From: an uncultured Elusimicrobia bacterium
GTDB taxonomy: Bacteria > Elusimicrobiota > Elusimicrobia > 2-01-FULL-59-12
Assembly (NCBI GenBank): GCA_963702895.1
Contig: OY969767.1
Coordinates: 1,386,506-1,450,505, forward strand
Length of the DNA stretch: 64,000 nt
Reading direction: 5' to 3'
The translations under genes and the position numbers were made by a program. Of the stretch, positions 6,123-44,607 are shown in pieces. The notes beneath the pieces are model-generated. The model was given only the letters and a program-made list of their open reading frames with translations, was not told where the DNA came from and did not search any database. Position 1 is the stretch's first letter, and each line of letters begins with the position of its first letter.

Positions 6123-6164
6123 GGCCGTTCCAGGCGGTGTATTTTCTGTGGCACTTTCCGTTGA

Positions 6165-6266: not shown

Positions 6267-6485
6267 CCCCCTGGCTTGCGCCAGGCATCCTGCCCATGGA
6301 GTTCGGACTTTCCTCCCACCTCCGCTCATTCTTGCGCTTCGCGCGGCGATGAGCTACGGTGGGCAAGCCCCCCCTATAAAAAAGGGGCCTGCCCGCCATA
6401 GCTCTGCCGCAGCGCGTTAGCGCTAAGAGCGGGCGGAGGCGGGCGGCGCTCCGAATGCAGCTTTCAAAGAGCGAACAACAAAAGC

Positions 6486-14020: not shown

Positions 14021-15405
14021 GAGTTACCATCAAAAGTGCTGGAAATAGGTTCTGAGGCAAGGAAGGATTTGCCTTAGGAATAGATAACGGCGTACCCTTT
14101 CGTTGAACCAAACAAACCTGTCCGTTCAAGCGGACAATAAACGAAAAGGAGACGCCGTTATGAAGACCATTGTAAACGTGAAAGGCTGCGAACACAAAGA
14201 GAGCATGCTGGATTATCTGGCCCGAGAGGGAGCGCGCAAAATGCTGGTGGAAGCCCTGGAGGAAGAAGTGACGATGTATCTGGAGCGGCGGCGCTATGAG
14301 CGGGCGAAGAGCCTGGAGAAAGGCTATCGCAACGGAACCCGGGAGCGGAAGGTGACAGTTTTGGGAGCAGGTTTAAAGCTCTCGGTGCCGCAAGTCGACG
14401 GGGGCGAGTTTGAGTCGAGCATCTTGCGTCCGTACCAGCGGCGAACCGAGGGTGTCGAGGAGTTATTCCGGCGGCTGTACCTGGAGGGGCTCTCGAGCCG
14501 GGACTTTGAGCCGGCGATGCGAGCACTGATCGGGGATGGAGCCACCTTATCAGCCAGCACGATCCTGCGTTTATCGGCGAAGTTTCAATCGGACCTGGCC
14601 ACCTTCAGCCGCCGGGACTTATCCGAAACGCGTTACGCCTATGTCTGGGCGGACGGCGTGTACTTGAAGGCCGGGCTGGAGAAAGAGAATACGGCGCTTT
14701 TAGTGTTGGTTGGCGTGAATGCCGATGGGAAGAAAGAGCTGATTGCTCTGATGGAAGGCTACCGGGAGAGCCGGGATTCCTGGAAGGAAATCTGGCGAGG
14801 GGTGGCGGAGCGTGGAATGCCCGCTCCGCTCTTGGTTATCGGCGATGGGATGGGTGGGCTCTGGGAGGCGGTGGCGGAGGTCTATCCGACCGCCAAAGAT
14901 CAACGGTGCTGGAAGCACAAGATGCGCAACGTCGTGGATAAAGTGCCGAAGGCCAAGCAAGAGGAGGTGCTCAACCGTCTGCGCGTAGCGTATCAGGCGG
15001 AGCGTCGAGAAGACGCGGAGAATCACCTGGCCTTGTTAGCCGAGGACCTGGAGATTCGCTACCCGAAGGCGGCGGCTTGTATCCGGAAGGACCATGACGC
15101 CTTGCTGCGCTACTTCGACTTTCCGAAGGAGCACTGGGTGCATTTAAAGACGAGCAATCCGATCGAGTCGGTCTTCGCGGGGGTCCGATTGCGAACTCGC
15201 GTTGTGCGGCGGTTTCAGAAATCTCGCACGGGAGTAGCGTTCGTCTACAAAATCATTGAACGCCTGGCGCAATTCTGGAAGCCGATTGAGAAGCCGGAAT
15301 TGGTGATGGGATTATTCGTCGAACGAGAGAAGCTGGAGGTAGCGGCCTAAGAGACTTTCGACCAAAGGGGCGCCGATCGATTTCCATCACATTTGACTAA
15401 AGCTC
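14021..15405 (+). mobile_element. IS256-family insertion sequence (1385 bp) flanked by 9-bp direct repeats TGTGTCCTG (14012-14020 and 15406-15414)
   Basis: Imperfect terminal inverted repeats GAGTTACCATCAAAAGTGCTGG (left) and rc GAGCTTTAGTCAAATGTGATGG (right), 15/22 identical. Single transposase ORF inside. Identical 9-bp flanks. Confidence 0.7.
14103..15350 (+). CDS. IS256-family (mutator-type) transposase
   Basis: 415-aa ORF (likely start MKTIVNV at 14160) with conserved IS256 transposase regions (…YLERRRYER…, DDE-containing core …VWADGVYLK…ALMEGYRES…). Confidence 0.85.
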   Translation: MNQTNLSVQADNKRKGDAVMKTIVNVKGCEHKESMLDYLAREGARKMLVEALEEEVTMYLERRRYERAKSLEKGYRNGTRERKVTVLGAGLKLSVPQVDGGEFESSILRPYQRRTEGVEELFRRLYLEGLSSRDFEPAMRALIGDGATLSASTILRLSAKFQSDLATFSRRDLSETRYAYVWADGVYLKAGLEKENTALLVLVGVNADGKKELIALMEGYRESRDSWKEIWRGVAERGMPAPLLVIGDGMGGLWEAVAEVYPTAKDQRCWKHKMRNVVDKVPKAKQEEVLNRLRVAYQAERREDAENHLALLAEDLEIRYPKAAACIRKDHDALLRYFDFPKEHWVHLKTSNPIESVFAGVRLRTRVVRRFQKSRTGVAFVYKIIERLAQFWKPIEKPELVMGLFVEREKLEVAA

Positions 15406-15522
15406 TGTGTCCTGGGCCGTCGATACCCATATTTTATGGGTCTTTTAGGCCCGTATTTTTGGCCTTCCCTACTATATATTCATTGCCGGAAACCCCCTAT
15501 TATTAAGGAGACTAGATCTTCG

Positions 15523-22518: not shown

Positions 22519-25500
22519 ATGCATAGGACCATCCGAAGATCCGCTGCCGTCCTTTTGATTGTCTGCTTGGTGGTCGATCCGGCAACGGCGGCCGCTTTTT
22601 CGAGCAGCCCCCCCCTCTTGCCGCGGCCGTTGGCCAAAAGGTGCCCTCCCATTCCGCGTTTGAAACCCAAGCCCTGACTTTGGTCCTGGCGGCCAGCATC
22701 TTCTTCGGCGCGGCGCTCCATTCTCCCGGGCATCCGCCGGTGGCCAAGACCGTCGCGATGCTTCCGGCGGAAGATCGGACCCGCTCCCTGGGCGCCAGGC
22801 GAAAACGCAGGCCCCGGGGTCCGCGTTCTGCGGACGATGTTGCGAGGGCTCGTCCCCAACGGGTCAGATCAACAGCGGCAGATTTTGTGAGGCAACAAGC
22901 CGCTGCCGGTCGCCTCGCCGAACTCCCCTATCGTCACAAGCTGATACTGACGGAACGATTCATCAAAGGGACATCTACGAAGAGGTTTGCTGTTCTTCAT
23001 GACATGACAGTAACGGCGGTCATAAGCGCAACCAGAACAGCCTTATTGGAATTGCGTCGATTGGTCAAGCCCGCCGCAGTTGAGCCCGCAGGATCTGGAG
23101 ATAACGGTCGCGCCGCACCCGCGCCTTCGGTCACGCACGCAGCAGACGCTGGAAACGCTGCCGGAACATCTCTTCCGGCAATTTCTCAGGATCAGCAATC
23201 CATCCTCGTCATATACCCTAACCTGAAACTCCTCCGCATCATGCATCCACCTGTCAAATCTGCATTGGATGATAACGGGCAGGACAGCCTGAGCCAGTTG
23301 ACCGTACCTCAAGACCCTGAGCTTTTGGACAAATTGGGCATCGATCCTACAGAGCTTCACATCGTCATTGCCGGATCAACAGTGGATGTGCTGAAGATCC
23401 CCTCCAGCGATTGGTGGGTTTCTCACGACCCTCAAGTAGAGCAAGTCAAATTTCTTTGGATTCTGGTGCGCTCCTTGACCAACGAAAAGGGTTTGGTCGT
23501 GATCTCCCCGTGGAGTGATATCACCGATGCTCGCACGCAACTTCAAGCACTGAAAAAGGCTTATTCCTTGACGGGGCGAATAGAACGCTCCCCGCAAAAT
23601 GACTATCCGACGCGCGACAAAGACGTCATCGTACGGCGGCGGGTGCGAGTCCTGGCCGTTGGGCCTGACTCGGACGCACCGTCGGAAACCGCGTTTCAAC
23701 TCTTGAGAGTCAACACGAATCCAAAGTTGAAAGAAAAGGCAGATTTGGACTGGAAAGTCATCCAAACCCTCCAGACCTTCCAGGGAGACAGGCTCTCAGA
23801 GTTATGGGATGTGCTGAAGGCTCAAAAGATCCAATGCGATCTGGACAGCTTAAGGGCCAGCTTAAAGCGTATCACGACTCTCACAAATGCTGCACCTAAT
23901 GAGATTCAAAGGAGCAGGGAGTTTGATCGGGGCCCAAAGAGGCAGAGGACCCGCTTGCCCGCACAGAAACCGCTGATCTTTAAATCGGACTTGTCGGAAG
24001 AAGCCCTTGCTGCCTACACCGAAAAGGTTCCGGTTTTCGAGCGTCAGATTACGTACCAAGAGTTTGTGACACAGAACTATGACCCCGATCGCCGCTTGGA
24101 GGAGATTACACGTCAACTTCCTGGGTGGAACTCCCCTGATCGTGTTTCCATCCCGATACTTGTTAACCATCTTCTGAAGAATGCATTTTTCCCGTTTCCG
24201 GACCGGTCCAATGACCGGCAAGCTCACGTGTCCATGGAAATCAGCATGCTTGAGCCGTCGGATCCAGAAGAGCCCAGGGTCGTGAATATCCGCATCCGTC
24301 AACCTTCGAGCACGCAGGCGGATTGGAATCGGTTGGAAGTCAATCATCGTGGATGGGTGAATCATGATCTCTTTTATTTCGCTCGCCCCGAATTGCGCGG
24401 CGACGAAGGCGCTCTGAGACCCGCTGGTCCTTCAAATCCAGCCGGAACAGGTCATGGGCTTTTGTTAGTCGCCCGGGTCTTGGCTGAGACACCTGCCTTA
24501 TTGAAATTCACGCGCAGTTCCGATCCTCCATACTCCTTACAAACCGATCTGTACATCGCGTTAAGGGACCGCGGGACGCCCCGCCCGAACGTCTCGGCCG
24601 GCAGACTGGCGATCTGGCTCCCCTTCCTGCTTGTCGCGGCCGCCGCAGCACAGATCGTGCTAGGCCACTTCTTGCCGGAAGCCGGTCAGCCGGCCTTGCC
24701 TGTCCTGCAGGCCGGCTTCTCGAGCATTCTCGGGCTGGGAGCATTGCTGACAGCGGCCTTTCAGCCGCGATACGCCCCGGAAGGCGGCGGGTCAGGCTCC
24801 GGAGATAGCGCACCGGCCAGCGGTGTTGCCGCAACGGACGTCGTGAGCAAGCTGCAAATATATGGCGTCCCGGTTGAAACGGATTCGCGCGGTACTTACG
24901 TGTCCCCGTCGCAAATGCCCCAGGCACCCTGGGTGATGGACCGCATGCGGGATCCGGAACAAGGAGCCCTCTATCCCATCCATGATATCCCCTCCCTGAC
25001 GCTGAGTTTTCCACTGCATGAGCTCCCGGCACTTTCCAGGGACAGCCTTTCGATAAACTCAAGCGGTGTGTTCCTCGGCTTCGTAAATGAACTGGATCAT
25101 CCTGTGGCCATTAAAGTTTTGAACCGAGATCAGGGAGATACGGAACTCATGAACGCTCAAATCCTTGGCCGGATTGGGGGCAACCCCGCTTTCTACGGCG
25201 TGATTCGCCTCTCCGACGGAGGGCTGGCCTATGCCATGCAGGCGGTTCGCTGCCTCCCCCTGGCCGAAAGCCTCGATTCGCAAGACAAGCAGTACTTGGC
25301 TGAACGTGAGCTCCTGAAAAAACGCGCGATGACCCTGGCCGGCATATCGCTGATCGCATTTCGCAGAACACCGGAAGGCCACGCCATCGGCATCGACGCG
25401 GGGGATGCCGGCGTCGTCGATGCAATAACCTACGGCCGTTACATCGCTGAACGGACCGCGGCCGCCCCCAAACGGAACGTCTGGATGCCGATCCTGATCG

Positions 25501-28500
25501 CCGTGAGCGCGGCCGCGCACATGGCGCTGGAGCACCTTCAATCTTCGATTCTTGGGTTTGGTCTGCTCAACGGACCGATCGACATGGCCGGGTTAGATTG
25601 GTTCGCCGAAGCGATGGTCTCTCAGGCGGGCGGGCCGGCGATCGCGCTGGGCTTTCTCGCTTGTGCTTTGTTTCAGAGGCTATGGGCGCCGGCTGATCGC
25701 GGGTACGGCTCGGGCGACACCAGCCCTACCACTACACCAGCCGAGAATGCCACTTCGCCTGCCCCGACCTTCCGGTCGGCCGGGGAATTGTTCGGAAGCA
25801 CTGTTCTCGACAGGCACCCGGGTGCCGCGTTGGGTGATCCGGCGCCGGAAGCAACCCCCTCGCCAGGATACACCCGGCCTTTGGACCAAGCCACGTTGGA
25901 TCGGGTGGCCGCTCTTTTGGAACGCCGGGGACTTGGTTTTCTGCGACGCGTTGTGGGCATCACCAGGGTCCAAGTGACGGAAAAGCACGCTGCTCTTTAT
26001 CTGATTAGGTCCACCATCCAACACCTTCTATTCACGAAGTCGATTTTCCAGGAAATTATCGTTCCGGATTTCGAGACCAACAAGATGCTCACGAGGATCC
26101 TCGCCCGCCTCCATGAACTGTTCGACCCTGTGACTCTGCTCAACAGCTTGTCGCAAACGGATGTCTATCAGGACTTGCCCGAACCGATCCGCCAGCGCTT
26201 GGCGGAGGCGCGCAAGCAGTTACCGCCTTCAAGAACGATGTCGGAGTCGAATCAAGACACGCTCCGGCTCATCGTCACAATCGGACTCTTGCACGAGCTC
26301 GGCAGGGTCATCTGGGATTGGATGCGACAGCTGGGGGATGATCCGCCAGGCATTGACGAGGAGGAACTGGCTGCCGACAAGCTGAACGAGTGGAGACGAC
26401 TGGCAGACGCGGCGGACCCGGACCTCTTGTGGGTCCGCGCCGCACTCAACGCGTACGGGCCGGGCCGACGCGAAGATGGCAGCAACACTTTTCCCGCCCA
26501 GCTCTTTGCCGAAAAGTTCGCCGTGTGGGCGTATCCGCCATTGTCCCGTTACTTTGGCGTGAAGCTTTCCGAAAAAGAGACCCAATTCTTTGACGAGCTT
26601 GCCATTTTCCTTCAAGCCACGACGGCGCAGCCCGGCCCCATTGTGCCGGCCGGCGTGTCAGACTTCTCGGTTGACATATTCATCGCCGGCGTGGTGCTGG
26701 ATTCCCCCGAGGGGGAGAAGGTCGCAGCGGCGAGCAAGGCGTATCATGCGGCCAAGGAGGTCGTGACGCGATTACAGAATCAACACCGTTCCAAAGGTCA
26801 CTCACCTATTCACGGGGACAGAGACCTCGAGGAAAGGACTCTTGTCGCCCGTACCCGGGACATGCAAACACGAGAGCGTGAACTGCGCGAGGCTTTGGCC
26901 GCTGCCGCCCATTCGGAGCAACCGCATTACTTCAATGGCGTGCTGAACGCGCTGGTGAGGTTGTTTGTCGCCGGCCAATTGCCCGCGGACGACCACACGT
27001 TCGAAGACTTTCTGCGGCAGAACCGGGAGGTCAAAGAGAGCCAGGATGCGTGGATCCAGGATCACCGGGACAGCGAAGAGGGCGTCTTCAGCCTTAAGAC
27101 ATTACGGTTCGTTGCGTGGAAAGCCGTTCATGCAGCTCTATTGACGAAACTGCATCGGGATAATGGAGAGGCCATGTGGCACGCCCTGCAAAGAGTCGAG
27201 CAAAGGCTTAAGGCGTTACCGAAAAAGGAACGAAGCGAGCTCATCAAAGACAAAGCATTCATTGAAGGTGTGAAGAGCTATGCCCGCAAGGCTGGCGCCG
27301 ATGTGCACGCAGAGTGGAACAGTACCTCTCAGGAAGGCATCGCCGGCGTGGTCATAGGACCCTCCCAGACCAACCGATCAGCTGTCGCGAGGAGCGACGC
27401 GGCCCCCGCCGCTGGCGATACGGCAGGCGATGAGAAGGTCAGCATCTCTCTGGATGGGGCCGCCACCCTAAGGACCCGCTCTAGCGCGCTCGCCATTCAA
27501 GATCTGTTGCACCCTGCCATTCCCATCCGTGTGATGAACGACGAAGCGGGACGGCTGGTCTCCGGTCGAACACAACTCTGGACGGTCTGGGACACTCCAT
27601 TGGATAAGTTTGAGACCGATCTCGACTTTCATATTTTGACGTATCTCAAGACTCTTTTGGAACGTTATCCGGGCCGCCGGATCACGGTCGTGGATTGGGG
27701 GTGCGGATCGGGGAAGGCGATCAGCGAACTTGCCCGCCTAGCCAAAGAGTTGAGCCCCAACCTCCGACTCATCGGTTATTCGGACCAGATTTACCGTGAT
27801 TGGAATGAGGCTCCGGAGAATGTCACTTTCATTCTGGACACAGCAGACCAGCTGCCTGGTTATTTCAATGATGGAGACATTGACCTCGTCGTCAGTCATC
27901 ACGGATTCTCCAAGCTCGGGGCGGACTATATTGGGCACCTGCGCCAGATGCACGGCCGAATGGCACCCCATGGAATCATTCGCCATCACAATGCGGGCTG
28001 GAGCATCAGAATCCATCAGGCACTTCCCGAGTACAGCATCCGATACTTTCCCTCGAAATGGCGGCGTCATGTGATTGAATTTGCCCCACTCCTGGTTCAT
28101 TTAGACCCCGCACTCGCGTTGGACCAAGAGGCCCGGAGAGGAGAAAAGCACGCTTCTCCTACCCCAAAGGCAAATGAGACTCAGACTCAGCCCGCGCCCT
28201 TTCTTCTGCAGGCGATTGAACACCATCAGCCAGACGACACGTTTCCCCTTATCCATCTTCGCTCCAGCAAGACGAAGGAACCTTTCCAAATACGACTTCG
28301 GCAATGGAATCCTTTGGATTTTAGTATTGAAGCTTCGGGCCGCCCCATCGGGGAGCTCAGGCTGAAACGGCTGTCCAATGCATTGGAGCTCAGCAGGATT
28401 CAACTGTATGAAAGATATGAACGCCGCGGTATTTCGGACGCCGTCATCCAGTGGCTTTCCGGTCAATTGGATGAGCGGCACCCCGCGCTCGAGCTCTCCA

Positions 28501-29921
28501 CCCGCAAAGCGAATGTGCGGTCCAGTCTCGTGCGCCATTTCAGCGACGTGCAAATACGAACCCACGCGGGATACGTGCCCTTATCAGATCTTACAGGCCG
28601 GCTCCAGTTCGGCTTCAAGCGCCTTCGACGCTTCCGCGCCATGCAGCCAAAACAGCCAATTGACGAACCATCGGTTGCCACGCCGACATCCGACATCAGC
28701 CTCAAGACCACCAGCATTTTTGTCGCAGGGATCCTGCAGGCCCCCCTGTGGGGGTATGGTCTGAGCCATATTCTTAGCGGGACTCCGGGTCTTTCCATGG
28801 GACACCTGCTCATTGGCGCAGGGTGGTCTTCGCTTCCCATCGCGACAGCTCTTTTTCTGACTGGCGGCTTTCTGGCGGCCGTGATTCCACTATCCCCTCC
28901 GAATCCTGCGGACAAGGTCCGCCTGTTGGGCTCTCAAGGGAAATGGCCGGGGGATGCGCTCCTTGAGGAGCTGGTCCGACTCGTGCAAAAAAAGCCGTCT
29001 ATGAAGCAGCAAGATATTCAGTGGAGGGGTTACCGGATCACCGAGATCCTTTGGCAAATTCTCGATCAGCACCTGGGTTTTGACGGCCACACCATTATCT
29101 ACCCGGCCGGCGGGGCTGATGGATTGCCATCACGCTTTGCGGACACGATTGTGCTCAATCGCGACAGACTGGAGAATCAAGCACGCGAGACTTTCAGTCT
29201 GCCCAAGCCTGGGACACACCGTCTCACCTATCTCACGCTGGACGCGGCCAGTCCTGCCAATTACAACCAAGTCCGCTCCGACATCAAAACCCCGCAAACA
29301 ACGTTACTGCTCAAGGGTCTCGAATGGATGCTCCCAACATCGAAGTTCTTTGTTCGGCGTTTGCGCGCGATTTGTAATGTCTTGCAACCGAATCGGGTGA
29401 TCATCCTGCGCCGTGAGGATGCCGCTGCCGTGGTGCCTGTTCTTGCCGGCCTGGGCTATCGAGAGCGGACGGATTGGATTGATCGGACGCGCAAGAGAGT
29501 TCTTGAAGCGATCTTTAACTATATGTCCATATCGGTGCTGGATGAGGTTCAAACGCCATCCGGCCCCACGTTCATGATCCCCAATACAATCAGACTGTTT
29601 GAAAGGAATAAGGGTCAACAGACCATGGCCGATCGAACGCCGCGGCATCGGGCCAATCGAAAGACAATCGCGCTTTTGGCCGCGGCGACACTCGACGGCG
29701 GGCTCTTGGCCTGGGGCTGGGGCCACGTTCTTGACGGAGCGCAAATGCCGCTCGTCACCCAGGCCGCGTTCCTGGCGATGCCTACGTTCTCGTTGAGCAC
29801 CGCCGCAGCGCTCTTCCTGGCCGGCGGCGCGCTTGTGTCGATCATAACGAAACAGACTCGTATATCGAGAGAATTTAACCGCCCATCTCGCACACCCAGC
29901 CCGTTTCGCCAAGCCGCTTAA
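22519..29921 (+). CDS. Giant mosaic protein 2 (~2465 aa if the frameshift is corrected): leader + class-I SAM methyltransferase + hairpin modules; +1 frameshift at poly-C 22608-22615
   Basis: The leader MHRTIRRSAAVLLIVCLVVDPATAAAFS is in frame 1 (ORF 22477-22677). The body is in frame 0 (22641-29921). Inserting one C in the C8 run restores a continuous ORF (…AAAFSSSPPPLAAAVGQKVPSHSAFETQ…). MTase motif ITVVDWGCGSGKAI (≈27680-28000). Confidence 0.7.
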
Positions 29922-30850: not shown

Positions 30851-33800
30851 ATGCCCAAATCGCTGATCCGCATCGTCGCGCTGATACTCGTCCCGTGCAT
30901 GCTCCTGGATCCGAGCTCCGCGTTCGCGGAGCTCGCCCGCCCCGCTGCGTGGCGGGCGCCATTCCCTGCAGGCGTTTCCCTTGCATCCCCACAGGCGACT
31001 CATGCCGCATTACGACTGGACTCTTTTCCGTTCGGTATCCAAGCCCTGGTTCCACCCAGCTGGCTGAGCCGTCCGATATCCTGGATCCAAAGAGCGAGTG
31101 AGCTGGCCCGCCAAGCAAGCAGGAATCGGTTCCAGGTGCGATGGACGTCTCTAGCAGGATCTCCATTCAGTTTCCCTGTTCTGGGTACGGACGAGCGACC
31201 CATTCGCCCGGTTCAATTCAGCGTATCCCAGAATGAGATCGGCGGCGGGCAGGACGGTACGGGCCAGATCGTAACGACACCAAGCGGCTCTCGCTTCCAG
31301 GTGTTCGACACCCCGCAAACCATGGCCGCCGCCCAGGCCGGTGAAATCGCGGAAATCATCCATGCCAATGATGCCGCCGGCCGGATCACCATCCTGATCC
31401 TGCCAACGGGCTCGACGCCAATCCCTGTCTACCACGAACTGGTCCGCCTGTACCAGGCGCGGCAGCTTTCCTTCCGAAACGTTCATACGTTTAACATGGA
31501 TGAATACTACCCCGGACCGCAGGCTCCCTGCGCTTGGGCTCAGCACCCACAAAGCTACCGCCGATTTATGGATGAGCTCTTATTCTCAAAAGTGGACATC
31601 CCTCGGGCAAATATTCATTTTCTTAACGGCCAGGCCGCCGACCCGGCAGCAGAGGCCGCTCGCTATGAACAGGAGTTTCGGGATCTCGCTCCAAACGGCG
31701 CCGACCTGGAGTTGGGTGGTGTGGGAAGCCGGGGGCATGTGGCCTTCAACGAAGCGGTGGTTCACCTAACGGATGACTTTCTCCAGCGCCTCACGAGCAA
31801 GAATCGGGAAGCGCTAGGTCTGTCCAATGATTTCGCCTTAGAAGTAACGGCCGGCCACGAACTTGCTGCTTTGGCGATGATTCTACAAGGTCACTGGAAT
31901 TTCCGGGAAGGCGAGACTTTCGTCCGCTGGCTTCGAGCAAGGATCAAGACGACGGGTCGCATCACGGAGGAAAGCCTCCAGAAATTGGCGGAAAGGCTTC
32001 GCCGCCAGCGCGTCACCATTGGCTGGAATCCCGATTCCCCTGATGCCAAGGACATCCAGGATTTCGTCAATCAAGCCAGTGCAAGATTCGGCTTTCCGAT
32101 TGAACTGGCCGACCTCAGAAAACTTGATGATTCCCAGACACACCTACGGGAACTGGCTTTATCCACCGTGGTCGACAATTCCGTTCACTTCGCTGAGCCC
32201 GCCGACATTCCCACCCAGGCTCTCACGATGGGCCTGGGAACGCTGAGGCATTCGCAGCGGACCCGCATTCTCGCTTCGACACCCAACAAAATCCCGCCGC
32301 TGGAACAGGTTGCCGCCGGCCCTGTGTCTGAGCAAGTCCCTGTCACCGATGTCCTGCGCCATCCCGACACCCGGTTCCTGGTGACCCAGGCGGCCATCCC
32401 GCCCACGGTGCGCACTGCCCTTGCAAGAACATCGGGTTTGGTATTGAACTCCCAACCCGAAACTCGAAACCCGAAAGCCGAATCCGGGACCCCTGCAGCG
32501 CGCGACACCAAGCTTTACACTCATCCCATCGCTGTTATGGCTCTCGCCTGGATGGCAAGTTCCCACTTTTATAGCTGGGACCCGGCCGGGACAGGCCTCC
32601 TTCTACTTCTGACAATCGCACCTTTAATGGCTTGGCAAGGAAGGATCTTCCGCGGCAAATCCGGCATGAATACGTTCCGGAGACTCGATGCATTGCTGAG
32701 GCATTTGAGGGGTCTTAGTTATGCTCGCTGTCGTGAACTCTTAGCAACCGGTCTCGACCGGTTCGTGCCGCCGCGCCGGAAACATAGACAGCGGGAGTTC
32801 CCGGCAATCGCCCTCCCCGCCGCCGCGCCAGGAAATCCGTTCCAATTGCGCCCCCCCACCGCCGTAGAGCTGGCGTTCCCCAGTCGGTATGAGAGCGCCG
32901 TTCACGCTAAGTTTGTGGGGAACGACCCCTACGATGATCGAACCAGAGCCATAGTCCAGGCCCACGCCACCGCGGCGTATGTGGACTTGATGAGAGAAAT
33001 TTTCAAACGGACAGGCGGGACCTTGCGCGGAGTTTCGTTTCTTGAACTGGGCGCCGGGCTCGGTGCCATAGTGGACGTTCTGCGAACAAGAGCGGGTGTC
33101 GATGCTCAAGGCATCGAGGTCCGCCGGGAGTTTGTTCAATTCGCTAGGGATCATGGGGTGCCGCTTATTCAAGGGACACTGCTGGAAGTGCCCCTTGAAC
33201 TGGCGGGAAAAACGTTCCAGATCACCTTTTCCAGGCAACTGCTGGATGCTATAGAGACGACTGATCGGGCCACCGAGGGCCCCATGCCCTCCCAAGTGAC
33301 CCATGAAGAAGAACTCCGCGTCTTGGCCACGATCGCGGCGCTGACCGCCCCCGGAGGATGGAGCATCCATCAAACATATAGCTCCAACCCTATTCCCTTT
33401 ACTGATGAAGAACTGACGCAGGCCGGGTTTCAGATTGTGTCGATGAACCCAAGGCGAACGATGATGGTGCTTCGCCGGTTGTCCGATCCGCCGCCTTCGA
33501 GCCCGGTACGGAGGCCTGAGGCCGCAGAAGAAACAATTAAACCTGAAGGAAAGAAGGGCCCCAGCCTTTACACTCATCCCATCGCTCTTATGGCTCTCGC
33601 CTGGATGGCAAGTTCCCACTTTTATGGCTGGGACCCGGCCGGGATTTTGCCGCTGCTCCTCTTGCTTGTGCCGCTGATGGCCTGGGGTCCGGGTCGTTAT
33701 CGGCAATGGATGACCTCCCTTTCCGGGAGAGGGCCAAGATACAAGGCGAAGCAATGGGAACGGAAATTGGATGAAGATCTGAGGCGCCTGAGAGGAAAGG

Positions 33801-36800
33801 GAAGTAAAGCCGGAACCTTGCCATTTGAACTTTATCCCGGTGCCGATGCAGGGGCTCGGAAGCCTGCATCCCCTCGCCCGGCCCGGCCGGCCACCCAGCT
33901 GCCCGAAGCGGTCCCGGTCTCTGACCCCTCGGTGTCGCTCGACCTCGCCCCGGCTGCCGCGGTTTCCCTGGCACCGGCTGCCGCGACCGCCGTCTCGCCG
34001 CCTAGCCCTATCGCCGATTCGCCGCCTCCATCCACCGATGGCTCGCCGACCCGCCGGCCCGCCGACCCGCCGACTCGCCGCGTCGCCGCATTGGACGTCG
34101 ACCCCGCCGCGCCGGCGACAAGCCCGTTCCGGCCGTGGCGGTGGATCGCCGCCGGCATCGCAGTCGCCGCGGTCGTTGCCGCCCTGCATTTCGGCCCGAC
34201 AACGTTCAGACAATTCCGGGACGGGTCTTCAACGCCGCGCCCGTCGTCGTCCGCGAGTCAGGACTACGTCTATGAGCCCGGGCCGGCGTCCGAAACCACA
34301 CACGACCGCGTCCGTACCATGATGGGACCGTACTACGGCATGGATCTTCAGGGACATCGGGCGGAATCCGGAGAACCCCGGGCCGATGCGGGAGCTCCCT
34401 CGCAGCCCCCCGCGCTGAACCCATTGGAGAACATTGCAGACATACAGCTGAGCGGTCATGCCGCGAATGAAATGCTGATGATGGCATTCGCGAACACGAT
34501 GGAAGACGGCGGCGTTTTATCCCACGCGGGACGAATTGACTTCGTGCCCTCGGATAAACTCACGAAAGAACGCACCAAAGTCACGCTGATTTTGCCCGCA
34601 TTGCGCCAGGGCCAGGCGATGCGCATGCCCATTCCCCTCAACCGCCGGGTCGATCCCCTGAGCATCTCGGACCCACGCCTCTGGGTTGACGCCCAGGGCT
34701 GGCTCACGGCCCGGGAGGATACCCCCCCGCTCACCGTGACCTTTGATTGGATCACGACCTTGGAAAACGGCTCCTTCCGGGCGAACTTCCCCGTGACACC
34801 CTGGATGGAGCGGGAATTCCAAGATATTCCGCCGGAGGTTCGAAGGGACCTTGACCGCGCTCTAGGGCTCGATGAACATGGACGCGCGAGCGTCCTGGCC
34901 GGCGTGGTTGAGAAATACCTCGGCTACAACCAGCAACAGAGAGTTCAACTTCGTCGGGGGACGTGGAATCGTTTCATTGGAGAAGTTCTTGAGACGGAAG
35001 GGCGGTTTAAGGGCGATTGCGACGTCTTGGCCACCGTCGGTTGGATCTGGGCCAGGTATCTTGGACTTGATGCTGTCATGGCAGCCGGCCGGAACAACAG
35101 GGGCGGGGGCTCACGGTCCGGAACGAACATGTCCCACGCCGTCATGGTCATCCGGATCGGCGGCAAGTGGCTCGAATTCGACCCTTCCAAATGGGCGCCG
35201 CCCGTCGCCAGTGAAAGTCTTGCGCCTGACCAGCCCTCCGCCGACGGGAAACGGCTGGATGCCGGTCCCATGCCGACACCGCTCAAGCCCTCACCCCAGT
35301 TTGTCGCTACCTTTATCCCGAACCCCGAGCTTTTCCCGCCACCTCGAACGGGACCACCCGCCAGTGCAAAGCCTACCGCGGAGCGACCCGTTCCGCCCGG
35401 CGTGGGTCAGGAATCACCGAAGACCGAACCCGGCGCCAAAGTGGGGCCTGCCGAGAAGCCCGCGAGCGCCAAGAAACCCGCGAGCACCGAAACCCCCGCC
35501 AAGCGGCCCAGCACCTACCGCGTTCAGCCCGGCCAGAGTTTCAACGATATCGCGCGCTTGATATTCACGGATGAGAAATATCCCTACCCGGCGGCCTTGG
35601 ATCTGATCGTGGACAACATCAACCACACGATCGGCGGCGACCCCGACCGCCTGATGGCAGGAGTCGACCTCATCGTACGGCCTACGAGCGCGTATTCTAG
35701 TCCTGTAGCAGGGATGGATTGGGAATGGGGCCTCCATCGAAAATATGGACGGGCCTGGTATGAGCGGCGCCATGCCTTGCTGCAGCAGGCGCTGACCCGG
35801 GAAAGTCAACGCCCGTCACCCTATACTTCGGAATACCAATCGGAACTGCGGGCGCGCGCGGGCGCCCGGTGGCGCTCGATCGAATTCGACATCCTTGCCA
35901 TCAACGACATCCTGAATTGGATCGAACAACGCTTCGGGGTCAGATTCCAACGAGTTGACCTTATGCAGGCGATGGCTCAAACCATGGAGCGCAGTCAAAT
36001 CATCTTGAAGCTGACGTCAACCGGCCGTTCAAAATCCGGAACGACCGCCGCCCCGAAGCAGACGGCCGACGGGGAATCGGCGAAACGGAGAAGCGGTGAA
36101 CCGGCGGACTTGCCTCTGGGCCATTCCACGAAAACAAGTCCGGACGACCGACTCATCGCTCCGAAGAGCATCACTCCCCTCATGGCAGGCCTGCTCCAGG
36201 CTCCGCTGTGGTGGTGGGGGCTGAGCCACCTGCTGGGCGGGCCGCAGACACCGCTCCTGACCCAGGCCGCCTTCCTGGCCCTTCCGGCCATCCCGCTCGG
36301 CGCCGCCCTGGCCCTGTTCGCGGCGGGGGTCGTGGTGGCGGGGATGGCGGTTTTGGGGAGAAAGGTTCTGAAGCAAACCAGACCCGAGCGCATTGAAATA
36401 CAACTGACCCCAATGGACAGACCCTATCAATTGGATCTCGTCAAGTCAGGTGGCAGCCATTCCCGGGGAGATTTGATTCGTCTCGATTTGGAGGAAATGC
36501 GGCTCGAAGCGCACAAGACCGGCGTACCCGGCCGTATGGCTGTTCGTCGAGTCTACCTCGAAGAGCTTGGACACGCTGTTGACGCGCGCCGCTTCGTCAG
36601 AGAAGGGCGGCCTCTTAGCGGCTTTGTAAGACCCAACTCACCTTTACAGACGTATTGGGACCACCACAATCCCAAAGACCCTGAGCATGACATGAAGGAG
36701 CTAGTGGCGGGTCTCAGGCACATCCTGTTTGCGCAAACCCCCTTTGAGGCGGAAAGAGCCCTCATAAAATTATCGCAGGTAGCCAATGATCCGACCGACA

Positions 36801-39800
36801 GCCACTATTGGGGCGGACGCTTCGCCCTTGAGAGGATTCTCCAACGCATCGACGCAGGGCGAGGCGAGAGGGTGGATGATCTGACAAACTATTTGCCACG
36901 CCTCATCTATGGGTCAGGGGCGTTCCCGGACCTGCCTACGCTGCGTTTACTGGCGAAAGAATTATGTATCGAAAACCTGCGGGACTATCCGCCTGACGGA
37001 GACGGTCTCCCTGCGCTGAGCGCGGATGGGTCCCGGATCGACGTTCCGGATGAGACCCAACAAGCTTTGGCAACGGTGTGGCGCGCATTCGAGACTTACA
37101 CGGGAAAATCATTGGCCGATGACGCGGTCCCCACGCCGGAACATGTCCGACATTCACAAGCGGCGAGGAGCGGGCTGCCTGGGTTTGACCGAACGGGCCA
37201 TTCTATTCATGACCCTGGTCTTGCGCAAGGGAGAAAGATGGTTGGTATGGTCATCGCCGGCCTGCTCCAGGCTCCGCTGTGGTGGTGGGGGCTGAGCCAC
37301 CTGCTGGGCGGGCCGCAGACACCGCTCCTGACCCAGGCCGCGTTCCTGACGATGCCGGCCATCCCGCTCGGCGACGCCCTGATCAGCTTCGCCGTGGGCG
37401 CGGCGTGGATCGTGGTGGCGGGGATGGCGGTTTTCGGGTCAGGGGCGCCCGCTCCGGGGCAGGAAGGGGTTTCCGGTCCTGTCTCGCCGGGACCGTCTTC
37501 CAATACCGCGGCCGCCGTCCGGAGGTCCTTCGAAGCGCAGGCTCGAGTACTGGCCGGTATCCCCACCGTGACCGAATTTGAAGCTAATTTCCCAGGCACG
37601 ATACGTCGCGTCGATCTTGGACCAGGCTATTCGAATTCGTTACGAGCCGGAGAAGTTCCTAAGATCGATTTCACGCGTCGAATACAGGGAAGAGTCTACC
37701 AGCCACCACCGGCGTCGGAAAACGATTGGCCGAAATGGCTGGACCTGTACGTCGAAAAAGACGCCCAGGCGCTTGTCGTGAGGCTGATGAGAGCGGGCTT
37801 TCGCCCCGATTATTCCAACGCTTACGGAGATGGCCTGAAAGGAGTGTGGTGGACCCGAACCAGCCACCATACTGACACCGTCGGTTCCAACGCAACAAAT
37901 ACGTTCTTTACTCCATTGACAGAGGAGGATTATCTCGCGCCGGACCAAGGCGAACATCCGGGCGAGACTCCTAACGACCCAGGAGCGCCTGTTACACCAA
38001 CAGAACCTCCCTTGAATTGGATCGAAAAGAATGACGCAGCCCTCGAGCAACTGAGTCCCATCGACCGTCAGCTTGTCGATGCCATTCTCCAAGGCGCCTT
38101 ACACGGCGATGCTGAACTGCTTGCCCAGTACCCAGAAAAAGTTTATATCGATCCTATTGAAGTTGGACGCTCGGATGAAGGCCGAACAATCTTTCTCAAG
38201 CTTGAAACGAGCATCCTAGTAGAAGGCCGCTACCTCACACACCTGCGATTCAAAGGCGCTCGCCCCCATAAAGGGCGCTACGGGCAGGGGAACCAAGTCG
38301 CCTATCTCGGACGTCGGGGCCATGTCGAGCGGCCTGTAACGGTCGATCAGGAAGGGCGATTGACGGTTTTTGCCGGTCAACTTGACCCCATGGGAGGTAT
38401 GCGCCGTATCGGGGCTGCCAACGAATACGCTTTGATGCAAAGCGAAAACAGCCAAGGCGCCTATCGCACGGACGTGCCGATCGGCTGGGGCATCTTCCCT
38501 GGATTTGCATTTGAAAACGAACCTCTGGGCTGGGCGATCGCAGGGATGGAAGGGCCCGACGTTCGAATAAACGGGCGTCGTCAGAATCAGCTGATCCTCC
38601 GGTCGCGCACGAACGACCCTTATGGGATGATTGAACTGTCTCAGGAACAGTCGCAACACCTCGCCAGGCTCATCGGTGAGAGCATCTGCGCTTATCATCA
38701 AAAAGGCCGTTATCACCGCTACCCCCATTTTGGAAATATCGGCGTGGCCTACGATACTGTCACCCGTTCCATCCGTTCTGTTGTTCTGCGGGATTTGGAG
38801 ACCTCCGTCCGGAAAGACAGCCTGAGCGGATCTCCGAAAGAAATTGAGAACCAAATCATTGCTTGGCGTTTCCGGGATGTGATTCGGTTGATCTATCAGT
38901 TCTCCTTCAGACCACGGCCCAATGACCCGCTCATCGGCGCCCTCTTGCGCGGATACTTCCCGGAAGGGACTCTAAGAAATGATGATCTTCAGGCCCTGCT
39001 TGTGACCATTTGCCGTCCCAACTTTCTCGATGATTACGCATCCTTATTCTACGACGATGAGACGCAAGATCTCTCGAATTTGATCGACACTCTCGACATC
39101 CAATCTCATCCTAATTATCAGCATCTTTGGAACGCGATCAGACAATCCATGGCGAGCCAGCCCGCCACTCCTGAAGGGAATGACGGTTCGGCGACTCAAG
39201 AACATCCGGGTCGCATTGATCCGACGGGCTTGCGCCGCGTGCTCCCGGCAATCGCCCTCCTGGCCGCTCTTCCCTGGACCTACGGCTTCACTTCGATCAG
39301 CGGCTCTCCCGGATCCGGCGCCGCGATCCCGCTCGGCGCCGCCCTGGCCCTGTTCGCGGCGGGGATCGCGGTCCTGATCTCAGGGAATTCCCCTCGAAAA
39401 CGCAAAATACTAACTAAGGCGGCGAGCCATAAGGCAGGAAGGCAAAAGCCGGTGAGTGGCGATGCACCGGGTCCTTCGCGTCACGTTTACCCTGACCCCG
39501 TCGTCATGGAGAAAAGTCGTTACGATCTTCCAAAGAGTTTGAAGTCCTGGTCTTGGCTCGCTCGCAACAAGGACCAACGTCAATGGCTGCGGGACGTATT
39601 CCTGCCGAGACTCTTGGCGACTCAAAACCTCCGCGCTCCAGGACAAATCAAGGTCGTAGACCTTGGCGTAAGCACCGGAGAAGTCCTCGCCCGAACTTAC
39701 TATGAGATTTTCCAGCATCTCATAGAAAACACCTTGAAGGGAACATGGAAGGCCAGGATGGTAGGTGTTGATAGGGATGCGACCGTGCTGGCGGAAGCCC

Positions 39801-41371
39801 GTCTTCGGATAAGCGGCAAGCACCCTTTCAATGATATCTCGATCTCTGGCCCTACCATTGAAAAACCAACCCCCTACTCGGCGGCCGTGGTGGATTTCTT
39901 AAACAGCGACCCGGCGGCCTTTCAATCCAGCGTGCAGCTGGAGCAGCTCGACATCACCGACCATGATTCGCTGGACCCCGTTTTAGACGGTGTCGACCTG
40001 ATCATGGTCAACCACGTCATGGAATATTTGCACCCGGCGGACGTAAAGCCCTTCTTGCAACACCTGTACCAGAAGGCCCCGCAAGCCTGGTTGGCCATGG
40101 AAAATGAATACAGTACTCCCGCCGAAGCTCACCACCGCCAATGGATACCTTATCAGCCGACGCATTTGCCGGGCTTTCGCCCAACGGATTCAGGAAGCAG
40201 CTCACTTCCCGGCGAGAACACACCCCGGTCAGCGGCTGTGGTCGGCATCTTCGCCAGCTGGCTCGCGCTCAGTCAGGCCGCATCCTCCGCTCACCTCCCC
40301 AGTAGGTTGGAATCCCTGCTTTCATTCTTCTATTCGATATCGCCGCTCTTTCCCTGGCTCATGCTCGCCGCGACAGCGGTCTGGCTGGCGGGCACCTTTG
40401 TCGCGCTGAGAACTCTTTGGAGGCACCCCTCTCGGGTGCCGAGCATAAGACAGGGCGGTACGGCTTCGCCCAGCCCGGCCAGAGCGCTCACTTTTCGGTA
40501 CTATTCCGAACTGACCCCCGGACAAAAAGCTGATGTAACGCTAGCTTCATTAATCAGAAGGTTAGGAGCAAGACGTGAGGTGCACGTCTACGATACGAAA
40601 CCATTGGGCAGCCGGTGGGGCCAATTGCCGATCCTCACCCGGTGGAGCCTGCGCCGTTTCACGCGTAACCTGACCCCTGATCCGACAACACTCAGACTCG
40701 ATGCTCTCGTCGCCTATCGTGGAGACATTCCCATGGGTGTTTACGCGTTCATCGATCTCGGTCCAGATCGTCAAATTGTTATGGACAACGGCATCTACAT
40801 GGACGCCGACCAGAGGCAGAACGGATACGGTGGAAAACTCACGAAGGAACTCCTCAGCAGGCTGGCAGAGCGCGGGTACAGAATGTTCGTTTTGGGACCG
40901 CCTTTGGGAACGGCTGAAGCGGAGGGGCTCCGTCGGTGGCTGAGCGCTGCCCCAGGCGTTGAAACGCGGGGCAGAACAACCATCGTCCATCTCGCTAACT
41001 ACCGAACAAACACCGCCAATTCCCAAGCCGCCGGCAAACCCAAAGGCAAAACAAACGATTCCGCCCCGGAAGCGGAGCCCGCTGACGCGCCGCGCGGCAT
41101 AAAGCTTCGCAGTTCCGCGCTGGCCGGCGCTCTCGCCAGCGCGATCGCGCTCAGCCAGGCGCCGTTTGCCCCCCAACTGCCGGATTGGCTTTCTCCCCTC
41201 TTCAGCACGGCGAGTTCGCTGGCGCCGCTCGTTCCCTGGGTGGGGATGGCCGCCGTGATCGGTTGGCTTTTACGGCCAGCTCTGACTCGCATGCTGTTGA
41301 AGGCCCTTCCCCGCCTGCGCGGCAGTCGTTCATCCCGAGCCATCCATCATCACCTTCGAGCCGCGGCCTGA
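30851..41371 (+). CDS. Giant mosaic protein 3 (3506 aa): leader, NagB/6-phosphogluconolactonase-like domain, 2x SAM-MTase, transglutaminase-like, LysM-like, GNAT-like, many hairpin modules
   Basis: Uninterrupted ORF. Leader MPKSLIRIVALILVPCMLLDPSSAFA. NagB-like PTGSTP…NMDEYY…GHVAFNE (≈31384-31760). MTase LELGAGLGAI (≈33038-33400). TGase-like GDCDVL…SHAVMVI…EFDPS (≈35012-35190). LysM-like YRVQPGQSFNDIARLIF (≈35516-35570). MTase VVDLGVSTGE (≈39640-40090). GNAT-like …QRQNGYGGKLTKELL… (≈40690-40900). Confidence 0.8.
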   Translation: MPKSLIRIVALILVPCMLLDPSSAFAELARPAAWRAPFPAGVSLASPQATHAALRLDSFPFGIQALVPPSWLSRPISWIQRASELARQASRNRFQVRWTSLAGSPFSFPVLGTDERPIRPVQFSVSQNEIGGGQDGTGQIVTTPSGSRFQVFDTPQTMAAAQAGEIAEIIHANDAAGRITILILPTGSTPIPVYHELVRLYQARQLSFRNVHTFNMDEYYPGPQAPCAWAQHPQSYRRFMDELLFSKVDIPRANIHFLNGQAADPAAEAARYEQEFRDLAPNGADLELGGVGSRGHVAFNEAVVHLTDDFLQRLTSKNREALGLSNDFALEVTAGHELAALAMILQGHWNFREGETFVRWLRARIKTTGRITEESLQKLAERLRRQRVTIGWNPDSPDAKDIQDFVNQASARFGFPIELADLRKLDDSQTHLRELALSTVVDNSVHFAEPADIPTQALTMGLGTLRHSQRTRILASTPNKIPPLEQVAAGPVSEQVPVTDVLRHPDTRFLVTQAAIPPTVRTALARTSGLVLNSQPETRNPKAESGTPAARDTKLYTHPIAVMALAWMASSHFYSWDPAGTGLLLLLTIAPLMAWQGRIFRGKSGMNTFRRLDALLRHLRGLSYARCRELLATGLDRFVPPRRKHRQREFPAIALPAAAPGNPFQLRPPTAVELAFPSRYESAVHAKFVGNDPYDDRTRAIVQAHATAAYVDLMREIFKRTGGTLRGVSFLELGAGLGAIVDVLRTRAGVDAQGIEVRREFVQFARDHGVPLIQGTLLEVPLELAGKTFQITFSRQLLDAIETTDRATEGPMPSQVTHEEELRVLATIAALTAPGGWSIHQTYSSNPIPFTDEELTQAGFQIVSMNPRRTMMVLRRLSDPPPSSPVRRPEAAEETIKPEGKKGPSLYTHPIALMALAWMASSHFYGWDPAGILPLLLLLVPLMAWGPGRYRQWMTSLSGRGPRYKAKQWERKLDEDLRRLRGKGSKAGTLPFELYPGADAGARKPASPRPARPATQLPEAVPVSDPSVSLDLAPAAAVSLAPAAATAVSPPSPIADSPPPSTDGSPTRRPADPPTRRVAALDVDPAAPATSPFRPWRWIAAGIAVAAVVAALHFGPTTFRQFRDGSSTPRPSSSASQDYVYEPGPASETTHDRVRTMMGPYYGMDLQGHRAESGEPRADAGAPSQPPALNPLENIADIQLSGHAANEMLMMAFANTMEDGGVLSHAGRIDFVPSDKLTKERTKVTLILPALRQGQAMRMPIPLNRRVDPLSISDPRLWVDAQGWLTAREDTPPLTVTFDWITTLENGSFRANFPVTPWMEREFQDIPPEVRRDLDRALGLDEHGRASVLAGVVEKYLGYNQQQRVQLRRGTWNRFIGEVLETEGRFKGDCDVLATVGWIWARYLGLDAVMAAGRNNRGGGSRSGTNMSHAVMVIRIGGKWLEFDPSKWAPPVASESLAPDQPSADGKRLDAGPMPTPLKPSPQFVATFIPNPELFPPPRTGPPASAKPTAERPVPPGVGQESPKTEPGAKVGPAEKPASAKKPASTETPAKRPSTYRVQPGQSFNDIARLIFTDEKYPYPAALDLIVDNINHTIGGDPDRLMAGVDLIVRPTSAYSSPVAGMDWEWGLHRKYGRAWYERRHALLQQALTRESQRPSPYTSEYQSELRARAGARWRSIEFDILAINDILNWIEQRFGVRFQRVDLMQAMAQTMERSQIILKLTSTGRSKSGTTAAPKQTADGESAKRRSGEPADLPLGHSTKTSPDDRLIAPKSITPLMAGLLQAPLWWWGLSHLLGGPQTPLLTQAAFLALPAIPLGAALALFAAGVVVAGMAVLGRKVLKQTRPERIEIQLTPMDRPYQLDLVKSGGSHSRGDLIRLDLEEMRLEAHKTGVPGRMAVRRVYLEELGHAVDARRFVREGRPLSGFVRPNSPLQTYWDHHNPKDPEHDMKELVAGLRHILFAQTPFEAERALIKLSQVANDPTDSHYWGGRFALERILQRIDAGRGERVDDLTNYLPRLIYGSGAFPDLPTLRLLAKELCIENLRDYPPDGDGLPALSADGSRIDVPDETQQALATVWRAFETYTGKSLADDAVPTPEHVRHSQAARSGLPGFDRTGHSIHDPGLAQGRKMVGMVIAGLLQAPLWWWGLSHLLGGPQTPLLTQAAFLTMPAIPLGDALISFAVGAAWIVVAGMAVFGSGAPAPGQEGVSGPVSPGPSSNTAAAVRRSFEAQARVLAGIPTVTEFEANFPGTIRRVDLGPGYSNSLRAGEVPKIDFTRRIQGRVYQPPPASENDWPKWLDLYVEKDAQALVVRLMRAGFRPDYSNAYGDGLKGVWWTRTSHHTDTVGSNATNTFFTPLTEEDYLAPDQGEHPGETPNDPGAPVTPTEPPLNWIEKNDAALEQLSPIDRQLVDAILQGALHGDAELLAQYPEKVYIDPIEVGRSDEGRTIFLKLETSILVEGRYLTHLRFKGARPHKGRYGQGNQVAYLGRRGHVERPVTVDQEGRLTVFAGQLDPMGGMRRIGAANEYALMQSENSQGAYRTDVPIGWGIFPGFAFENEPLGWAIAGMEGPDVRINGRRQNQLILRSRTNDPYGMIELSQEQSQHLARLIGESICAYHQKGRYHRYPHFGNIGVAYDTVTRSIRSVVLRDLETSVRKDSLSGSPKEIENQIIAWRFRDVIRLIYQFSFRPRPNDPLIGALLRGYFPEGTLRNDDLQALLVTICRPNFLDDYASLFYDDETQDLSNLIDTLDIQSHPNYQHLWNAIRQSMASQPATPEGNDGSATQEHPGRIDPTGLRRVLPAIALLAALPWTYGFTSISGSPGSGAAIPLGAALALFAAGIAVLISGNSPRKRKILTKAASHKAGRQKPVSGDAPGPSRHVYPDPVVMEKSRYDLPKSLKSWSWLARNKDQRQWLRDVFLPRLLATQNLRAPGQIKVVDLGVSTGEVLARTYYEIFQHLIENTLKGTWKARMVGVDRDATVLAEARLRISGKHPFNDISISGPTIEKPTPYSAAVVDFLNSDPAAFQSSVQLEQLDITDHDSLDPVLDGVDLIMVNHVMEYLHPADVKPFLQHLYQKAPQAWLAMENEYSTPAEAHHRQWIPYQPTHLPGFRPTDSGSSSLPGENTPRSAAVVGIFASWLALSQAASSAHLPSRLESLLSFFYSISPLFPWLMLAATAVWLAGTFVALRTLWRHPSRVPSIRQGGTASPSPARALTFRYYSELTPGQKADVTLASLIRRLGARREVHVYDTKPLGSRWGQLPILTRWSLRRFTRNLTPDPTTLRLDALVAYRGDIPMGVYAFIDLGPDRQIVMDNGIYMDADQRQNGYGGKLTKELLSRLAERGYRMFVLGPPLGTAEAEGLRRWLSAAPGVETRGRTTIVHLANYRTNTANSQAAGKPKGKTNDSAPEAEPADAPRGIKLRSSALAGALASAIALSQAPFAPQLPDWLSPLFSTASSLAPLVPWVGMAAVIGWLLRPALTRMLLKALPRLRGSRSSRAIHHHLRAAA

Positions 41372-42856: not shown

Positions 42857-44599
<1,743 letters not shown>

Positions 44600-44607
<8 letters not shown>

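Follow-up and report, generated by a model that had tools for sequence, protein, structure and literature searches.

Recurrent two-helix hydrophobic modules between the enzyme domains of three giant proteins from an uncultured Elusimicrobia bacterium

Three giant genes and their hydrophobic modules

Three successive plus-strand open reading frames (ORFs) of 2343, 2426 and 3506 amino acids, termed here g1, g2 and g3, are located on contig OY969767.1 of an uncultured Elusimicrobia bacterium (GenBank assembly GCA_963702895.1), within a stretch of 64,000 nucleotides (positions 1,386,506 to 1,450,505 of the forward strand) that was analysed as a whole and is referred to as the window, in which all positions are counted from its first letter. 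The encoded giants are interrupted by short hydrophobic modules, which also occupy their C-terminal ends. A preliminary description of the window had interpreted these elements as a single recurrent module with a TQAAFL motif, arranged in the manner of sortase-type sorting signals and iterated inside the proteins. A hydropathy scan delimited 14 modules with two hydrophobic segments each, together with one single helix, and hydrophobic segments were indeed found at essentially all of the positions described before. The module singled out at 36186-36365 corresponds to g3 residues 1779-1838, and its quoted sequence proved exact.

The modules were compared all-versus-all by Smith-Waterman alignment against composition-preserving shuffles, which revealed a recurrence far above chance (z up to 32) and divided them into four families, namely A and B with five members each and C and D with two members each (Table 1). 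No relation between families A and B could be detected by profile-profile comparison (hhalign probability 0.4%), and a single superfamily for all modules was rejected on account of this value and of the four-family partition. The individual modules measure 41-69 residues and consist of two hydrophobic segments separated by a loop of 3-25 residues. The TQAAFL motif is confined to three of the 14, located at the C-terminus of g2 and within g3 residues 1772-1850 and 2130-2205, while in the remaining family A members the corresponding stretch is either deleted (g3_e) or replaced (g2_c), so the notion of one recurrent TQAAFL module is not borne out. It was also expected that every C-terminus would carry a module followed by a basic tail, and this layout was found in all three giants, with Lys/Arg-rich tails of 19-32 residues; however, the three terminal modules are not one module, as they come from families B (g1), A (g2) and D (g3). 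The hydrophobic segments at g1 residues 687-809, which had been counted as a further copy (17480-17900), resemble no other module. Because they lie directly N-terminal of a polytopic ICMT-like domain (ICMT matches at residues 858-1003), they are probably the N-terminal helices of that membrane domain.

The recognisable domains between the modules comprise a NagB-like domain, four S-adenosylmethionine (SAM) methyltransferases, a receiver domain and a weak GNAT match, all of which are of cytoplasmic type. Domain Z of g3 displays a WaaP/Bud32-like kinase fold, the zincin-like domain X contains a Glu-Glu-x-Gly-His motif, and the transglutaminase-core match in the same protein is weak. LysM, HATPase and sigma-r4 domains that had been recognised by eye were dropped for want of Pfam support at E≤0.1, and the NCBIfam sigma-factor matches in the giants are weak as well (E 0.03-0.13). 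The modules are situated at exact domain borders, since the homologue matches fill g3 residues 1850-2117, 2196-2373 and 2388-2801 between modules c, d and e, and they are flanked by linkers rich in Pro, Ser, Thr and Gly. In the representative protein collection, g2 and g3 are recorded as singletons from a single contig of 2.72 Mb; an exact look-up of g3 returned no entry.

Table 1. Positions of the giant genes, their leaders and modules, and the features directly upstream
Feature	Position in window	Strand	Remarks
LuxC-like acyl-CoA reductase, LuxE-like acyl-protein synthetase, class III aminotransferase	10446-13953	-	just upstream of transposase and giants
IS256/Mutator-family transposase	14103-15350	+	directly upstream of g1
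g1	15436-22467	+	2343 aa; N-terminal leader, unknown domain, ICMT/LmtA-like polytopic methyltransferase, receiver, two unknown domains split by family B hairpins
g1 N-terminal leader MIPFIFQRFVALLLVPSLLVDPLTAAAL	15523-15606	+	same leader in L003
g1 hydrophobic segments	17494-17862	+	aa 687-809; similar to no other module
g1_c, family B hairpin	19081-19227	+	aa 1216-1264
g1_d, family B hairpin	20575-20742	+	aa 1714-1769
g1_e, family B hairpin + basic tail	22210-22464	+	hairpin aa 2259-2324; end GRAA-COOH
g2 N-terminal leader MHRTIRRSAAVLLIVCLVVDPATAAA	22519-22596	+	out of frame with g2 ORF; frameshift at C8 run at 22608
g2	22641-29921	+	2426 aa in the listed ORF; one assigned domain, a SAM methyltransferase (aa 1684-1780)
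g2_a, family B hairpin	24606-24761	+	aa 656-707
g2_b, family B hairpin, long loop	25479-25685	+	aa 947-1015
g2_c, family A hairpin without TQAAFL	28713-28892	+	aa 2025-2084
g2_d, family A hairpin with TQAAFL + basic tail	29664-29918	+	hairpin aa 2342-2403; end RQAA-COOH
g3	30851-41371	+	3506 aa; leader, NagB-like, methyltransferase, Pro-rich linker, transglutaminase-like (weak), zincin-like X, Y, protein-kinase-like Z, methyltransferase, GNAT (weak)
g3 N-terminal leader	30851-30928	+	
g3_a, family C module	32513-32635	+	aa 555-595; loop DPA
g3_b, family C module	33566-33685	+	aa 906-945
g3_s, lone predicted transmembrane helix	34136-34207	+	aa 1096-1119; in no module family
g3_c, family A hairpin with TQAAFL	36170-36358	+	aa 1774-1836; module singled out in the preliminary description
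g3_d, family A hairpin with TQAAFL	37238-37438	+	aa 2130-2196
g3_e, family A hairpin without TQAAFL stretch	39239-39379	+	aa 2797-2843
g3_f, family D hairpin	40232-40408	+	aa 3128-3186
g3_g, family D hairpin + basic tail	41114-41368	+	hairpin aa 3422-3474; end LRAA-COOH

Module copies, relatives and termini of the giants

At the nucleotide level, the module copies are direct DNA repeats that stop at the module borders. When compared in register, g3_c and g3_d share about 100% identity across some 90 nt, even at synonymous sites, while g3_a and g3_b are 95% identical over 84 nt and g3_c and g3_e are 94% identical over 50 nt in the second helix; just outside the modules, the identity drops to about 25%, which is the random level. 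Since even the synonymous sites are identical, these values indicate recent gene conversion or segmental duplication of the module copies. The copies thus share DNA ancestry, by which much of the apparent conservation of the motif is explained.

When 1.84 billion representative proteins were scanned in full by HMMER with g3 residues 1770-2860, 107 matches were obtained, 39 of which are large proteins of 1,000-6,629 residues. The kinase-like domain Z accounts for most of the 107 matches and domains X and Y for fewer, and no match to the modules was found among them besides g3 itself and g2. Likewise, no relative of family A was detected outside the source genome in GTDB genomes, JGI metagenomes and the 1.84 billion representative proteins. 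A word-indexed protein search with g3 residues 1770-2205 returned no match and also missed g3 itself, which is present in the collection; negatives of this search are unreliable for hydrophobic or low-complexity queries, and the result is uninformative.

Several distantly related large proteins from other metagenomes (P0017, P0048, P0003, P0002 and P0039) contain internally repeated hairpins of their own between domains of the methyltransferase, GNAT, HAD and kinase-like types. As 21 of the 22 hairpin pairs with z≥5 fall inside one protein or genome, it is the architecture that is conserved and not the hairpin sequence, which is the opposite of what would be expected of a recognition motif. 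A unit of domain, hairpin and basic tail forms the C-terminal end of P0011, P0049 and P0105, and five homologues (P0008, P0010, P0014, P0073 and P0105) have domain X at their C-terminus; because these units stand at C-termini there, the giants look like fusions of formerly terminal 'domain + hairpin' cassettes. In P0017 (locus L085, 2068 aa), whose hairpins occupy residues 316-380, 790-854, 1050-1121 and 1960-2016, the first helix of all four hairpins ends in a lipobox-like L-x-G-C followed by A/E-P, which could represent internal sites of lipoprotein-type processing or lipidation. Beside dnaG/rpoD in related Elusimicrobiota metagenome-assembled genomes (MAGs), tblastn detected no giant homologue, and one large leader-bearing ORF was found in Elusimicrobia bacterium RIFCSPLOWO2_01_FULL_59_12.

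That leader is shared by g1, g3 and an out-of-frame ORF upstream of g2, with the consensus [VA]A[LV][LI]L[VI][PV][CS][LM][LV]xDPx[TS]A[AF]A. It is Sec-signal-like, being composed of a short h-region, then DP, and then an AxA-like site. The true start of g1 is probably Met30 of the ORF. In g2, the frames of the leader (22519-22596) and of the ORF join, within 22519-22680, across a homopolymer of eight C at 22608, where either the assembly is in error or the tract is prone to slippage. The same leader opens the ORF of at least 1065 residues near dnaG/rpoD in the RIFCSPLOWO2_01_FULL_59_12 genome (L003, 18651 onward), and variants with DP open P0011 and P0025. In our judgement, the leader appears more conserved than a generic signal peptide would be.

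The opposite termini are alike as well, in that all three giants end in AA-COOH, specifically GRAA (22453-22464), RQAA (29907-29918) and LRAA (41357-41368). An [A/S]-A-COOH end was observed in 34 of the 107 homologues, including P0007, P0012, P0041 and P0051, and in 20 of the 39 with at least 1000 residues, and the C-terminal consensus reads hydrophobic(-5)-x-R(-3)-[A/S](-2)-A(-1). Most of the homologues with this end are devoid of a C-terminal hairpin. By its sequence, the end resembles a C-terminal recognition tag of the ssrA/ClpX or Prc type or a C-terminal export signal; as true sorting or recognition signals, the leader and this end are stronger candidates than the hairpins. It is tempting, though rather doubtful, to go further and propose that the leader R-x-[VI]-A-L-[IL]-L-V-P-[CS]-[LM]-x-x-D-P-x-[TS]-A and the hydrophobic-x-R-[A/S]-A-COOH end might be the hallmarks of a dedicated pathway of targeting or processing, hitherto undescribed, for large 'enzyme-string' proteins of Elusimicrobiota and related uncultured bacteria, in which the lineage-specific hairpins would serve as units of anchoring, possibly of cutting, and of cassette shuffling by recombination.

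Membrane topology and rival explanations

The distribution of charged residues is informative with respect to the orientation of the modules. Against a Lys/Arg background of 11%, the loops are poor in these residues (2 in 134, p=2e-5), while the 20-residue flanks of the modules are rich in them (98 in 559, p=3e-6), and this is the pattern that the positive-inside rule predicts for hairpins whose two ends are cytoplasmic. An AlphaFold2 (AF2) model of g3_d, although of low confidence, consists of a helix, a short turn at TQAAFL and a second helix. Moreover, the receiver, the methyltransferases, the kinase-like domain Z, the GNAT domain and the basic tails are assigned to the cytoplasm because of their dependence on ATP, SAM, acetyl-CoA or phosphotransfer, and we therefore infer by parity that an even number of spans is required in g1 for modules c, d and e together (after the receiver) and in g3 for modules e, f and g.

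On these grounds, the modules are best explained, with a probability of about one half, as helical-hairpin anchors by which a string of cytoplasmic enzymes is attached to the membrane. Each hairpin would be built from one strongly hydrophobic helix and one marginal, often Trp/aromatic-rich helix, joined by a short, uncharged, Pro/Gly-rich loop, and would insert with both ends in the cytoplasm. Together with the low-complexity linkers, the hairpins would keep successive domains at the inner membrane surface, among them the SAM methyltransferases, the receiver, the WaaP/Bud32-like kinase fold, the GNAT and NagB-like domains and the ICMT/LmtA-like integral methyltransferase, and the C-terminus would be fixed by the last hairpin with its basic tail. 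Rather than a conserved recognition motif, the modules are lineage-specific sequences that segmental duplication or gene conversion has copied and homogenised, both inside each of the three paralogues and from one to another, and they would probably act as in-frame recombination joints for the gain, loss and exchange of 'domain + hairpin' cassettes. The proteins themselves would stay intact.

Several observations weigh against this explanation. On the Hessa scale, the strong helix of each module sums to -0.6 to +3.9 and the marginal segment to +4.3 to +8.7, compared with values of up to +6.0 for soluble proteins and of -2.8 to +5.6 for bona fide TerC helices; some modules could thus be one span plus an interfacial helix, and hydrophobicity alone is no proof of two spans. 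The Sec-signal-like leader on all three giants would be predicted to place the N-terminal domain outside the cytoplasm, and the lone transmembrane (TM) helix g3_s conflicts with a model in which every module enters and leaves on the cytoplasmic side. When charge and hydrophobicity were considered over the whole protein, no single topology accommodated the leader, g3_s, the enzyme types and the charges together. For the hairpins, AF2 returned low confidence, with a predicted local distance difference test (pLDDT) score of 30-70. Furthermore, g2_d and g3_c retain PLxTQAAFLAxP, and more fully W-G-H…P-L-x-T-Q-A-A-F-L-A-x-P, although 8 of the 18 conserved codons differ synonymously; because the motif is kept despite these changes, the family A peptide is also under purifying selection, with homogenisation not the sole cause of its conservation.

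The marginal segments and the export-signal look of the leader are the main attractions of an arrangement in which each module is a single span plus an interfacial helix and successive domains come to lie in the cytoplasm and the periplasm by turns; on this reading, the weak match to a transglutaminase core could be an extracytoplasmic domain. Such serpentine proteins had been suggested as a fallback in the preliminary description, and it is true that the enzymatic domains are split by TM modules, but charges and parity favour tethering on the same side. Under alternation, about half of the SAM-, ATP- and acetyl-CoA-dependent domains would lie outside the cell, together with the basic C-terminal tails of g1, which follows its cytoplasmic receiver with three modules, and of g2; nor would one expect both flanks of the modules to be Lys/Arg-rich around loops that are nearly free of these residues. 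Alternation is accordingly considered unlikely. Somewhat greater doubt attaches to the idea that the giants are polyproteins, cut at or near the modules into separately anchored enzymes by signal peptidase, an intramembrane protease or a protease domain within the giants. The C-termini of P0011, P0049 and P0105, the terminal position of domain X in five homologues and the lipobox-like motif in all four hairpins of P0017 are the only hints of cutting, a signal peptidase gene (LepB, 60349-61308) is present in the window, albeit as a housekeeping gene, and accounts of giant multi-TM proteins from Omnitrophota and Elusimicrobia (10.1101/2023.11.21.568195; PMC12057145) raise the question of cleavage. 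In opposition to this, no cleavage motif is common to the four families, no dedicated protease is encoded in the neighbourhood within the window or beside six homologues, and the internal modules lack, downstream, the hydrophobic-x-R-[A/S]-A end by which true C-termini are marked, with 3 loose matches by eye against about 1.3 expected on a rough estimate, neither figure being tool-computed. The possibility that the giants leave the cell as effectors, with the hairpins entering the membrane of a host or prey and the enzymes acting in the foreign cytosol, is more improbable again. The layout is like that of Inc proteins, which have a long bilobed hydrophobic domain and little sequence similarity (PMC3656976); the conserved leader and extreme C-terminus could be export signals; the set of kinase-like, methyltransferase, acetyltransferase, zincin-like and transglutaminase-like domains is typical of effectors; and predatory or host-associated lifestyles have been proposed for related phyla (10.1101/2023.11.21.568195; PMC12057145). 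Yet no secretion system is encoded in the window, one of the two helices in each module equals ordinary inner-membrane helices in hydrophobicity, which would favour retention in the membrane of the producer, the polytopic ICMT-like enzyme and receiver domain of g1 are typical of resident proteins, and the genome of 2.7 Mb offers an ordinary housekeeping context.

The original proposal, that the modules are internally iterated C-terminal sorting signals for a sortase, exosortase, archaeosortase or rhombosortase, is by far the least probable and is at odds with those of its defining features that were examined. LPXTG, PEP-CTERM and GlyGly-CTERM signals have in common a signature motif directly N-terminal of a single TM helix, a basic cluster that closes the protein (0-5 residues past the helix in GlyGly-CTERM), an N-terminal signal peptide with no further TM segment in between, and a sorting enzyme of matching distribution (PMC3237569). 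The three C-termini do have a superficially tripartite look, with a conserved stretch, a hydrophobic helix and basic residues, and a signal-like leader is present at the N-terminus. Nevertheless, no signature motif is common to the modules or to the three C-termini, whose modules belong to three families and contain two hydrophobic segments each; the tails are far longer, at 19-32 residues, than the 0-5 of the GlyGly-CTERM class (PMC3237569); and 3-8 further hydrophobic modules intervene between the leader and the C-terminus. Neither the giants nor the modules taken separately were matched by any NCBIfam sorting-domain model at E≤1. Among the about 30 flanking genes of the 64-kb window, Pfam recognised no sortase, exosortase, rhomboid or CPBP protein and only the housekeeping LepB, and no dedicated sorting enzyme, protease or conserved partner gene was found beside six homologues, where the neighbours are unrelated housekeeping genes.

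Genomic setting and comparison with known systems

Apart from the giants, the window harbors murE/PBP/mraW, an RNase P RNA, two tRNAs, rpoD, dnaG, hrcA-grpE-dnaK-dnaJ and lepA-lepB. Its DnaG shows 59-73% identity to those of Elusimicrobiota MAGs and at most 41% to all else returned, which places the organism in the Elusimicrobiota. The luxC/luxE/aminotransferase trio upstream of the transposase may constitute a fatty aldehyde/amine pathway. The match to bacterial RNase P RNA (class A) at 5742-6383 on the minus strand spans 642 nt against a model of 367 positions, which implies large insertions in this RNA. The essential sigma-70 gene rpoD (42857-44607, minus strand) is split into two ORFs near 43466 by a frameshift at a C/G homopolymer after …DLIQEGG. 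As both g2 and the essential rpoD are frameshifted at C/G homopolymers, errors of homopolymer length in the assembly are suggested.

When the giants are compared with established systems of surface sorting (LPXTG/sortase, PEP-CTERM/exosortase, PGF-CTERM/archaeosortase, GlyGly-CTERM/rhombosortase and MYXO-CTERM/myxosortase), the resemblance is limited by the fact that the modules here are also internal and that the window encodes no partner enzyme. Membrane-threaded viral polyproteins, such as those of flaviviruses and the nidovirus replicase, provide another parallel, since their long ORFs are divided into functional units by TM hairpins, which also anchor the enzymes to a membrane surface. 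In these viruses, signal peptidase and viral proteases are established as the cleaving enzymes and act at conserved sites, whereas no such site or active protease is evident in g1-g3.

A likeness in layout is offered by the bilobed domain of the chlamydial Inc proteins, which is defined by its architecture of two hydrophobic lobes and a short loop, with both flanks cytosolic (PMC3656976, PMC3290821). The modules, at 41-69 residues with loops of 3-25, agree with the Inc pattern of two lobes of ~20 residues and a short loop (about 40-60 residues in total). Incs are secreted by a type III system, are small to medium in size and usually possess a single bilobed domain close to the N-terminus, in contrast to the 3-7 modules per giant, the Sec-like leader, the different phylum and the lack of a type III secretion system in the window.

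Similar in kind are the giant or large multi-TM proteins described from Omnitrophota, Elusimicrobia and CG03 (West-Roberts et al., 10.1101/2023.11.21.568195; PMC12057145). They share with g1-g3 very large multidomain ORFs from the same or neighbouring phyla, many predicted TM helices, divergent domains largely missed by Pfam and a question of cleavage. They are proteins of 10,000-85,000 residues, mostly predicted to be extracellular, with SecA-like, C39/S8 peptidase and carbohydrate-binding domains, in contrast to the 2,300-3,500 residues and cytoplasm-type modifying enzymes of g1-g3. The passages of 10.1101/2023.11.21.568195 and PMC12057145 consulted make no mention of discrete repeated two-helix border modules, a common leader or an [A/S]-A C-terminus.

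With ORFs of 2343-3506 residues and 39 homologues of 1,000-6,629 residues, the giants belong to the class of large multi-TM multidomain proteins of Elusimicrobia and Omnitrophota. Within this loosely described class, the hairpin connectors constitute a new variant that is real, statistically solid, lineage-specific and homogenised by recombination, and most likely serve as membrane anchors. If so, they would afford a compact route to a membrane-attached assembly line of modifying enzymes, for which the WaaP-like kinase fold, the LmtA/ICMT-like methyltransferase and the GT9 heptosyltransferase domains in homologues give weak hints at envelope glycolipid chemistry. Meanwhile, the homogenisation of the connector DNA suggests a built-in mechanism for the in-frame shuffling of enzyme cassettes, and the module borders provide precise positions at which termini can be sought when the question of cleavage in the giant multi-TM proteins of Elusimicrobia and Omnitrophota is addressed.

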